Part shown: piece by piece, positions 8,901 through 11,900 of the stretch
Layout of the letters: every line of letters starts with the position of its first letter
Position numbering within the stretch: the stretch's first letter is position 1
Source of the DNA: Amoebidium appalachense
Lineage: Eukaryota > Protista > Ichthyosporea
Direction: 5' to 3'
Assembly: GCA_963693365.1 (NCBI GenBank)
Contig: CAVNZM010000008.1
Span: forward strand, 7,884,830-7,948,829
DNA: 64,000 nt
Translations under genes and position numbers: made by a program
Notes under the pieces: generated by a model
Told to the model about the DNA's origin: nothing
The model's database searches: none
The model's input: only the letters and a program-made list of their open reading frames with translations

Positions 8901-11900
8901 CGAACAGCAAGGAAGGGGAAGGGAGGGGGGTCGGATTCTTCCGGGGGATCTTCCGGGGATTCGAGCTCGAGCGAGGAGGGAGGGGGAGGGGGACAGCGGG
9001 AAGAAGAAGAAGAAAGAGCGAGGGGTGGGTTTTTTGCTGTTTTTCTCTTTCCCCCCCCCGACATCTTTACTTCCATGCAACCGGGCATGGTTGCTCTGTG
9101 TCGTGCATCTGTAAGCACATACGCGTTTGTCGCTGCACTGCATTAGTTTGCACACACATCTTCACCGTTTTGCTCACCTTGCTTGCATAAGCAACCCTGC
9201 TCGTCTTTGATCAAGACGGGTTGACCCACCCAAGTTCAGTTGATGCTGCTGTCTGAGTTGGAGCGTCGTATATACGCGGGCTAAGGGGTCGAAACTCAGA
9301 CGCAATTGATGACTTGGGCCCTCCCTGAGGATGGGCTCTGCTTATGACGCATACTGTGCGCATGGCTGATGCTGCATACTTGAATGTTTGCCTTTGCATG
9401 TGTCCTGCATCATGCTTCTCATCGTCTATGCGTACTTCGTACTGTGTTCCGCATTCAAACCCCCCCCCTATCGGTTTGGCTTTTTTCAAGCCCAAAGCAA
9501 TGGGTGATACCATATTTCCGGCTGACATCCGGGGGCATAGCTTTCCGTTCGAAGACGATAAAGTTCCGCCCTAGTAAGCGTGTTACTACCCTGCGGCGTG
9601 GGTCAAATCTCATATTTTCCCCTCTGATTACGAATTCTGTGGCCTTCGGGACTTAATTCTTTTCAGCTGGTGTAGTATGTTAGCCAGGGAAGTATCGACT
9701 TAGGTATCGACGGGGGAGCTTCCTAGAAGCCCCGTCTCCTGAGTTCCTATCTATATTTTTCTTGCTTCTGCTTACTGCTGCAACTTTAACCCCCGGCCTT
9801 TCCCACTGCCCTTGCCTGCATAAGCAACCCTGCTCGTCTCTGATCAAGACGGGTGACCTACTCATGTTCAAGTGAAACAGTATCTGAGTTGGGTTTCGTT
9901 AACGAGGGGAATAGGTCGAAACTCGGGTACTGTGGATGACGTGGGCCCCCCCTGAGGATGGGCTCTGCTTATTATGCATACTCTTTATGTATGGCTTGCA
10001 TTCTGCATCGTGTTATCCGTTTGTTCTTGTGTACTTCGTACTTTTTGACGCATTCAAAACCCCCCCCCCCCCCCCCCCCCCCCTCGTTTCTTTTCTTTTG
10101 TTTTGTTTTGTTGTCGTTTTCGCCTTGCTCTTGTTTTTTTAATTTTTACCCCTCGCTCTTCCTTGTTTCCTTTTAAATGGGGTTTCTTGCTTTGCTGCGC
10201 TGGGCTACTCATATTCTTGTCCCGTCGCTCCTCTTCCCTTCAGTTTTCTGCTGTACTTTTTTTCGCTTGTATACGTTTTCTTTCATCCATCCATCCCCCC
10301 CCCCCCCCCCCCCCCCCCCCCCCCCCCCCTCTTTCCTGCTCTCTTGTGTGTGTGTGTGTGCCTGTGTCTGTGTCTGTGCGTGTGTCTGTGCATTTTTTTT
10401 ATTATTTTTTTTTTTGTGGGGGGGGGGGGGGGGGGGGGGGAAGGGGAGGGGAGGGGGGGGGGGGGTGGTGGTGGTGGGATGGGGAGCAGAACGGCTTTTC
10501 ACTGAACGGGGCAGTTCCAGTCATATTTCTCTAACGATTGGTACAAAATCAGGCGTTCATGTATAGCGACAGCGGCGACGAATCATCCGGCTCCACCTCC
10601 GGCACCTCCTCCTCCTCCGGCTCGAGCTCGAACTCGAGCTCTTCCGATTCGAGTTCAAGCGAAAGCGAAGATGAAAATAACGACAAAACAAAAACAAAAA
10701 CAAAAACAAACAACAAACAGAAGAAGTCTCCTACGCCACCTTCGTCGCAAGCCGCGACGCCGGCGCCCGTCGTGGTTGTGGTGCCGCGAAAGGGGAAAGG
10801 AGGGAAACAGTTACCACCCCCACCCCCACCACCCGCTCCGTCCTCCACGCAATCTACGATGAACGTTCCACCCGTTTCCGCCCCTTCCGCACATGCACAA
10901 GGATCACAACACACCGCCGCGGCGGCGGCGGCGGCGGGGAATGCGAGTGCGGGTTTGAAAGAGAAGGAGAGGGAGAGGGAGAGGGATGGGCGCGCGTCTG
11001 CGGATGGGAGGAGTAGTAGAGGGGGAAAAGTCAAGGGGGAAAAGGATAGTGTACAGACAAAACCGGCGGCTTCGACGGTTTCGGCGGTTGCGGAGAAGCC
11101 GGCGGAAAAGCCGACGGAAGAGAAGAAGACGGAGGGTGTAAGGGTGAGTTGAGGGAGTGTGTTTGTGTGTGTGTGTGTGTGGGGGGGGGGGGGGGGGGGG
11201 GGGGGGGGGGGGGGGGGGGGGGGGGGGGGGGGGGGGGGGGAGATGTGGTGGTGGTGGTGGTTGGTGAGGGTATGGGTGGGTGTGGGGAAGGGGGAAAGAG
11301 GGAGCGGAAGGGGATAAGGGGGCGGGGGGGGGGGGGGGGGGGGGGAGGGGGGGAGGATGGGGAGGGAGTTTGCTGGTGTATGTGTTTGTGGATGGTGGAC
11401 AAGTAGGTCGACGTTGGTTTTGGTCTCCTGCAATCCCCCGCTTCCCCCTCCCCCCCCCCCCCCTCCCACACACACACACGCACACACAACACGTTCTCTT
11501 GTTCTCCCCCCCCCCCCCCCCCCCCCCCCCCCCCCCCCCCCCCCCCCCGGAGGATGGGCTCTGCTTCTGTTGCATACTGCGTGTGTTGGTGTTGTTGCAT
11601 ACCTGAACGCTTGCCTTTGCATGTGTCCTGCACAGTGTTTCTCGTGTAGGTGGTACCTCGTACCACGTCCCCCCCCTCCCCCCCCCCCCCCCCCCCCCCC
11701 TTCTTTACTTCCATGCAACCGGGCATGGTTGCTCTGTGTCGTGCATCTGTAAGCACATACGCGTTTTTCGCTGCATTGCATTATTTTGCACACACATCTT
11801 CACCGTTTTGCTCACCGTGCTTGCATAAGCAACCCTGCTCGTCTTTGATCAAGACGGGTTGACCCACCCAAGTTCAGTTGATGCTGCTGTCTGAGTTGGA

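Follow-up and report, generated by a model that had tools for sequence, protein, structure and literature searches.

We read a repeated domain in a 64,000-nt stretch of Amoebidium appalachense DNA (the window) as a self-cleaving ribozyme of a Penelope-like retroelement, with a four-stranded hammerhead core and a predicted cut after the GUU triplet at 9259; judging from sequence, the probability of this reading is roughly 0.7. The feature itself is real, a type-SGC-like hammerhead that is no plain member of its type if its block C is split, and its cleavage is predicted. The copies support a structure that carries the hammerhead core in a non-circular, pseudoknotted order, from which an active fold is predicted. 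Coordinates of the copies and structural elements are given in Table 1.

Table 1. Repeat copies and structural elements of the predicted ribozyme. Positions are those of the window; P0 to the rival stem II strand refer to the family A copy at 9065–9468.
Feature	Position	Strand	Pairing or remark
Family A copy	9065..9468	+	5'-truncated part of 452-nt head-to-tail unit; C-run at end
Family B copy	9469..10056	+	ribozyme domain 9820-9972; stem II 9855-9859 with 9913-9917
Family B predicted cut	after 9890	+	
Family C copy	6912..7070	+	compensatory changes in P0, helix I and kink-turn; N7 = U
Family A copy	11818..11988	+	one mismatch each in upstream stem II and helix I
Older B-like copy, D	43265..43420	+	stem I region deleted
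Family B copy	51659..51823	-	
Family A partial tandem	53993..54534	-	tail fragment, linker, copy; exceeds one unit
Family B copy	59514..59644	-	5'-truncated
Family A copy	60888..61058	-	
Family A copy	62060..62213	-	5'-truncated
Closing helix P0, 5' strand	9187..9193	+	with 9339-9345; 3/7 pairs change on both sides; pair probability 0.89-1.0
P0b 5' strand, CCC	9195..9197	+	with GGG 9333-9335, one U after A9
Hairpin P1	9200..9220	+	second helix of the branch put in at A9/G10.1
Preferred stem II 5' strand, GACCC	9223..9227	+	with 9286-9290; G10.1 = 9223
Helix I (kink-turn C-helix), 5' strand	9229..9238	+	with 9310-9318; U9235 bulged
Kink-turn bulged strand	9239..9244	+	GUU bulge, then G, A, U (1b-3b)
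Kink-turn partner strand, UGA	9307-9309	+	
Stem III 5' strand and GUU triplet	9245..9259	+	predicted cut between 9259 and 9260
Stem I 5' strand, GGAG	9260..9263	+	with 9321-9324
Variable linker, stem I to stem II	9264..9285	+	small non-conserved hairpin inside
Block G	9286..9306	+	stem II 3' strand, GAAA 9291-9294, 13-nt stem III 3' strand
Stem I 3' strand and CUGAGGA (C3-A9)	9321..9331	+	
Rival stem II strand, GGCUC	9334..9338	+	overlaps P0b

The core of the family A copy consists of GUU (9257–9259), then GAAA (9291–9294), then CUGAGGA (9325–9331), with stem III formed by 9251–9258 and 9294–9301 and stem I by GGAG (9260–9263) and CUCC (9321–9324). The family B copy repeats the arrangement (GUU 9888–9890, GAAA 9918–9921, CUGAGGA 9952–9958) with a stem I of only 3 bp, GGG/CCC. 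The A15.1-U16.1 and G10.1-C11.1 pairs are present, with the three stems, I, II and III, in register. A first-pass annotation had reported the three junction strands in register, the stem I exchange between A and B and a variable position 7 of CUGANGA, and we found all three again (N7 is U in the copy at 7045 and A in the copy at 14407). It had also placed the N7 variants in diverged copies; the 7045 copy is diverged, but not merely so, as it belongs to a separate family with compensatory changes.

A descriptor for the type-SGC order gave seven matches in the window, which are not independent because each is a copy of a single repeat, vs. one match in a total of 60 block-wise dinucleotide-shuffled windows. 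An Rfam search of the window, hammerhead types I–III included, returned no matches at the gathering score, as expected from the non-circular order. In an alignment of 11 copies from families A, B, C and D (62–81% identity over the domain, spanning just 3–4 independent families), G12, A13, A14, C11.1, C3, U4, G5, G8 and A9 are unchanged throughout, and A6 and A15.1 are kept in 10 of the 11. The non-core GGGCUCUG 3' of A9 is conserved as strongly as the core. Among the variants listed (40 of 45), changes at C3 and U4 reach 2–3% in two DNA runs; these are probably truncation joints where shortened copies meet the C-run. Variants are fewer in the domain than in the tail, a weak difference (p = 0.03, or 0.21 without window-private sites), and three of the four variable family A positions are unpaired, the fourth lying at the base of the variable hairpin.

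The first-pass annotation took the strand order to be a new topology. The order UH, GAAA, CUGANGA (S, G, C in the carrier, with the type I order absent) is, however, that of the type-SGC hammerhead (Eckert et al., 2023; PMC10085705), which cleaves in vitro at the predicted bond, at 0.007–0.13 per minute in extended constructs. What stands of the annotated scrambled core is a non-circular, pseudoknotted and possibly dimer-swapped arrangement on a retrozyme-like carrier; the order is already known, and it is the wiring that differs from published SGC. The term “type-SGC” appeared in PMC10085705 alone, and the wiring was not reported anywhere in the literature searched, a scope that left subscription journals and bioRxiv supplements outside.

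Two strands could complete stem II, GGCUC downstream of CUGANGA and GACCC upstream of the cleavage block; both had been annotated and both are present. If GGCUC is used, block C is intact and the RNA would be an ordinary type-SGC hammerhead, with GACCC as an off-switch competitor. All seven descriptor matches fit this arrangement, GGCUC is unchanged in families A, B, C and D, and in family C the downstream pairing is the better one (-4.4 vs. -2.8 kcal/mol for the bulged upstream stem). One or two inserted bases after A9 are also tolerated in type SGC (PMC10085705). In families A and B, the energies are reversed: upstream GACCC pairs at -7.1 (A) and -5.4 (B) kcal/mol, GGCUC at -3.5 and -2.2 kcal/mol, so that the annotated option of a 2-nt insert before GGCUC is the weaker one there. 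Double changes affect none of the five downstream pairs, the fifth of which is mismatched in most B copies among the rows listed, and some of the Naiad rows described below have no downstream partner. In the upstream stem, in contrast, a pair that is C-G in A is U-A in B1. The shares of 9859 T>C and 9913 A>G also match in three DNA runs (3.7/3.1, 4.2/4.4 and 4.2/4.1%, as population shares and not linkage, among the 40 of 45 variants listed), and the 9913 change repairs the rival downstream pairing too. By covariation and pairing energy, upstream GACCC is the favoured stem II strand, and we regard an intact block C as quite unlikely.

With GACCC as the stem II strand, the core becomes four-stranded and A9 and G10.1 lie apart in the chain; block C, uninterrupted under GGCUC, is then interrupted. 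This would depart further from known hammerheads than the first-pass annotation had suggested, and the kink-turn, the closing helices and the connection to Penelope-like elements were not part of that annotation. The A9-G10.1 backbone step is likely replaced by a two-helix branch, P0b and P1. Single extra bases are found at the same step in HRIMA-1 and in Penelope hammerheads, and in type SGC variants the stem II strand leads straight into the I helix, like GACCC here (PMC10085705). HRIMA-1 and SGC variants further share with the present RNA the order S, G, C, a helix tying stems I and II, a U after A9 and the G10.1-C11.1 pair. Eckert et al. assume that CUGANGA and the adjacent stem strands cannot be interrupted, whereas block C here is likely split, with the stem II strand upstream and two helices at A9/G10.1. 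Stem III and the I helix here form one arm with a kink-turn, and the linker between stems I and II has 22 nt in A and 19 nt in B, compared to about 3 nt. Type SGC is also known from metatranscriptomes only, with none in genomes of known organisms, unlike this repeat in eukaryotic genomic DNA. Two truncated copies, at 14401–14432 (+) and 53544–53573 (-), carry GAACUC after CUGANGA-U, the same word that lies upstream in family C; these may mark a subfamily in which block C is intact, or else preserve a vestige of the duplication behind its split.

The full structure pairs in 89.7% of 447 cells of the 11-copy alignment. Double-sided changes occur at 19 of 47 pairs, vs. 4–7 in slid-partner controls, part of them stemming from a single degenerate copy; this copy, the few independent families and the derivation of the structure from the same sequences soften the support from covariation. 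Stem III has 13 bp and runs into the kink-turn, beyond which helix I of family A is the analogue of the type-SGC “I” helix and connects stems I and II at their outer ends. In a standard kink-turn, two helices flank a 3-nt bulge and, after it, G.A and A.G pairs (PMC4316175); the sequence here is of this kind, with G1b, A2b and G2n in 11 of 11 copies and A1n in 10 of 11. The 3b-3n pair is U.U in family A vs. A.G in B and C, and, despite this switch, the kink-turn keeps a 13-nt distance from A15.1 in 11 of 13 copies. Ions alone are reported to suffice for folding of the A.G type, and the U.U type is that of box C/D, whose folding depends on protein (PMC5689011). Folding z-scores are -2.6 and -3.4 for the arm (-0.2 in family C) and a modest -1.4 and -0.8 for the whole domain. 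In a pseudoknot-free model, the pair probability of P0b is only 0.32; the lowest-energy fold of B1 pairs CUGAGGA away with P1, and the proposed helix I register has a probability of 0.02–0.10 there.

In the mechanism we propose, a long arm would hold the cleavage block and the GAAA block at its tip, and its base would hold CUCC-CUGAGGA together with, as a separate strand, GACCC of stem II, with P0b and P1 branching where A9 and G10.1 normally join. The tip would dock on a base through stems I and II. Stem II is described as stacked on stem III in active hammerheads, and by rough geometry about 25 stacked layers separate the kink from the far end of stem II, with a helix I of about 10 bp. At a 50-degree kink, the distance to be bridged by the 1-nt linker would be about 38 Å, and at full fold-back 24 Å, with about 14 Å reachable, in a crude estimate for which rise, radii and linker reach are all assumed. 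On this geometry one molecule would be unable to close the active fold, which makes docking between tandem copies likely; a similar puzzle is raised for some SGC RNAs in PMC10085705. We lean slightly toward a model with docking on the neighbouring tandem copy rather than on the RNA's own base, the kink at a fixed spacing arguing for some fold-back in cis. Neighbour-copy docking has been proposed for Penelope and amphibian retrozyme hammerheads, and dimer action with circularization by tRNA ligase is the model for non-LTR retrozymes. G12/G8 chemistry would yield a 2',3'-cyclic phosphate and a 5'-OH, and cleavage of tandem transcripts would free RNA of unit length, to be closed by the host tRNA ligase. 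For a Penelope-type reverse transcriptase (RT), genomic G-runs could then serve as primers at the C-run inside the RNA, which would give C-flanked, 5'-truncated and more-than-unit copies that cross the cut site.

The same geometry suits a non-catalytic scaffold, a hammerhead-derived binding site for RT or an L7Ae-family protein that cuts little or not at all, since in a single molecule the active fold could apparently not close. None of the 22 copies or fragments in the window starts at the predicted cut, which is also what such a scaffold would give, and Penelope minimal hammerheads are reported to cut poorly in vitro. The U.U kink-turn of family A, of the protein-dependent box C/D type (PMC5689011), points the same way. 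Tandem or circular templates would, however, explain the missing cut-site starts, and every catalytic nucleotide, along with a permitted H17, persists between the diverged families, as in unrelated Naiads with the triplets GUA and UUC; we consider a scaffold unlikely. Far less probable is that the resemblance is accidental, or that the repeat amplifies some other kink-turn RNA (box C/D snoRNA, SECIS). UGAUGA and CUGA do occur in family A, and about 60 shuffled windows suffice for one descriptor match. Yet the box C word is absent from family B, the kink-turn strands pair together and not with CUGA, the Rfam search finds nothing, three stems covary in hammerhead register and the design recurs in the Naiad sequences listed. 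The snoRNA and SECIS readings were dropped.

The self-cleaving ribozyme that we prefer likely travels on a very high-copy, 5'-truncated, poly-C-flanked Penelope-like repeat. Among the 22 copies or fragments found by BLAST in the window, 14 reach a common end before the C-run and seven start at the C-run just before CUGANGA; the element shows a common 3' end, frequent 5' truncation, partial tandems and insertion at C-runs. The cleavage block of the family C copy in Table 1 has been lost by deletion, and a covariance-model search of the window gave no clear further family. The retrozyme-like carrier postulated in the first-pass annotation takes the form of a non-coding head-to-tail tandem unit of 452 nt, at the upper edge of the 150–450 bp range of non-LTR retrozymes, and the tail-linker-head junction of this family A unit is seen in loose ends of run contigs. 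In total, 18,067 contigs from one run matched 1.1 kb of the repeat, a figure that indicates great abundance and is not a copy number. The run contigs cover A and B, and one bridges the A cut site; they are uninformative on expression or cutting. Families B, C and D share a small hairpin in their heads, upstream of the ribozyme domain (9712–9733, approximately 6810–6835 and 43153–43175, +), with a folding z-score of only -0.4.

A Penelope-type RT with N-terminal GIY-YIG and CxC motif was not found in the 64-kb window. At its 5' edge, the family B copy carries 34 open codons (9470–9571, +, with a stop by 9574), possibly the end of a helper's reading frame, as yet unproven; they may resemble the Penelope RT thumb motif. 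Run contigs reach at least 238 nt further upstream. Searches with this 34-aa frame gave no true homologue and no atlas match, and four apparent homologues were rejected as false, repeat-driven matches. The RT at 44276–46362 was rejected as a proven helper, as it belongs to an APE-type LINE and not to a Penelope RT. This LINE (44276–46462, +) is 5'-truncated and frameshifted, ends in AATAAA and an A-run, and is 49–60% identical to an unnamed 922-aa protein; the nearest named relative of the broken RT is from Amoebidium parasiticum (53%). In the literature search, no paper joined Amoebidium with Penelope, and those listed for ichthyosporeans and Penelope look unrelated by title.

In Naiad consensus sequences (Craig et al., 2021; PMC8557442), the same layout was seen by eye in at least nine elements among the 54 places listed for GAAA-block words, with names inferred from file order; the likeness meant is one of layout. 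It occurs at consensus 3' ends, with 5–6 upstream stem II pairs, 2–6 stem I pairs and triplets that are mostly GUA and also UUC, and the P0b/P1 branch is visible wherever a row extends far enough upstream. In the Acropora rows, stem III has 13 bp and the I helix 9 bp, a spacer at A9 is absent and a downstream stem II is impossible, and in the Octopus rows the kink-turn faces opposite to that of family A. The split-core layout was not seen by eye in the Chlamys rows listed. From 122 of about 240 viral loci, chosen only for G- and C-block words, one passes a like descriptor (213–361, +), GC-rich and probably a chance match with 5-bp stems, including a 5-bp stem III vs. 6–12 bp in window copies; a covariance model run on 100 viral loci gave one weak match (E = 0.04) and no relatives. 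A pattern scan of metagenomes gave two matches, both rejected as chance, inside a gene read as ftsX-like.

The carrier resembles Naiad and Chlamys elements in 5' truncation and partial tandems, and Chlamys in (C)n insertion (PMC8557442); it differs in that RT and GIY-YIG were not found here and in a host that is neither animal, alga nor slime mould. In common with non-LTR retrozymes it has a tandem unit near 450 nt, non-coding and bearing a hammerhead, and Penelope hammerheads are described as usually having an extra base between 9 and 10.1, with dimer action proposed (PMC7229834; PMC4209133; bioRxiv 10.64898/2026.07.22.740005). The hammerheads of non-LTR retrozymes and Penelope pLTRs described there belong to type I (C, G, S) and their stem III is short, unlike the opposite cyclic order and long stem III here. 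The four-stranded, branch-interrupted, kinked, tandem-docking hammerhead may be a hidden ribozyme of the Naiad lineage that predates the split of animals from their unicellular relatives, an idea we hold only tentatively; what the window contributes is covariation at population level for upstream stem II and a host that is likely not an animal. If the idea holds, non-circularly permuted hammerheads would move from metatranscriptome contigs into eukaryotic chromosomes, the published assumption of an uninterrupted CUGANGA block would be broken, and its presence in an ichthyosporean would place the origin of the design before animals. It would also explain why descriptor searches report Naiads as lacking canonical hammerheads (PMC8557442). 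RNAs of this kind would escape every current hammerhead descriptor, and the idea would bear on the role of Penelope hammerheads and their dimer action.

Two further observations concern the surroundings of the copies. A tail-to-head repeat junction lies at 44053–44272 (+); its second copy ends 3 nt before the predicted cut and adjoins the 5' end of the LINE, and past the LINE, at 46463–46590, comes a 3' half that is more diverged. This single, inexact case may represent either an insertion close to the cut site or a chimera formed with a cleaved RNA. An intron-rich UTP4/cirhin-like WD40 gene occupies approximately 49700–63600 (-), an exon of which has its nearest relative in Ichthyophonus (77%, species from an “Ihof” label). 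Many repeat copies lie in the introns of this gene on its own strand, so that the pre-mRNA would contain the predicted ribozyme.
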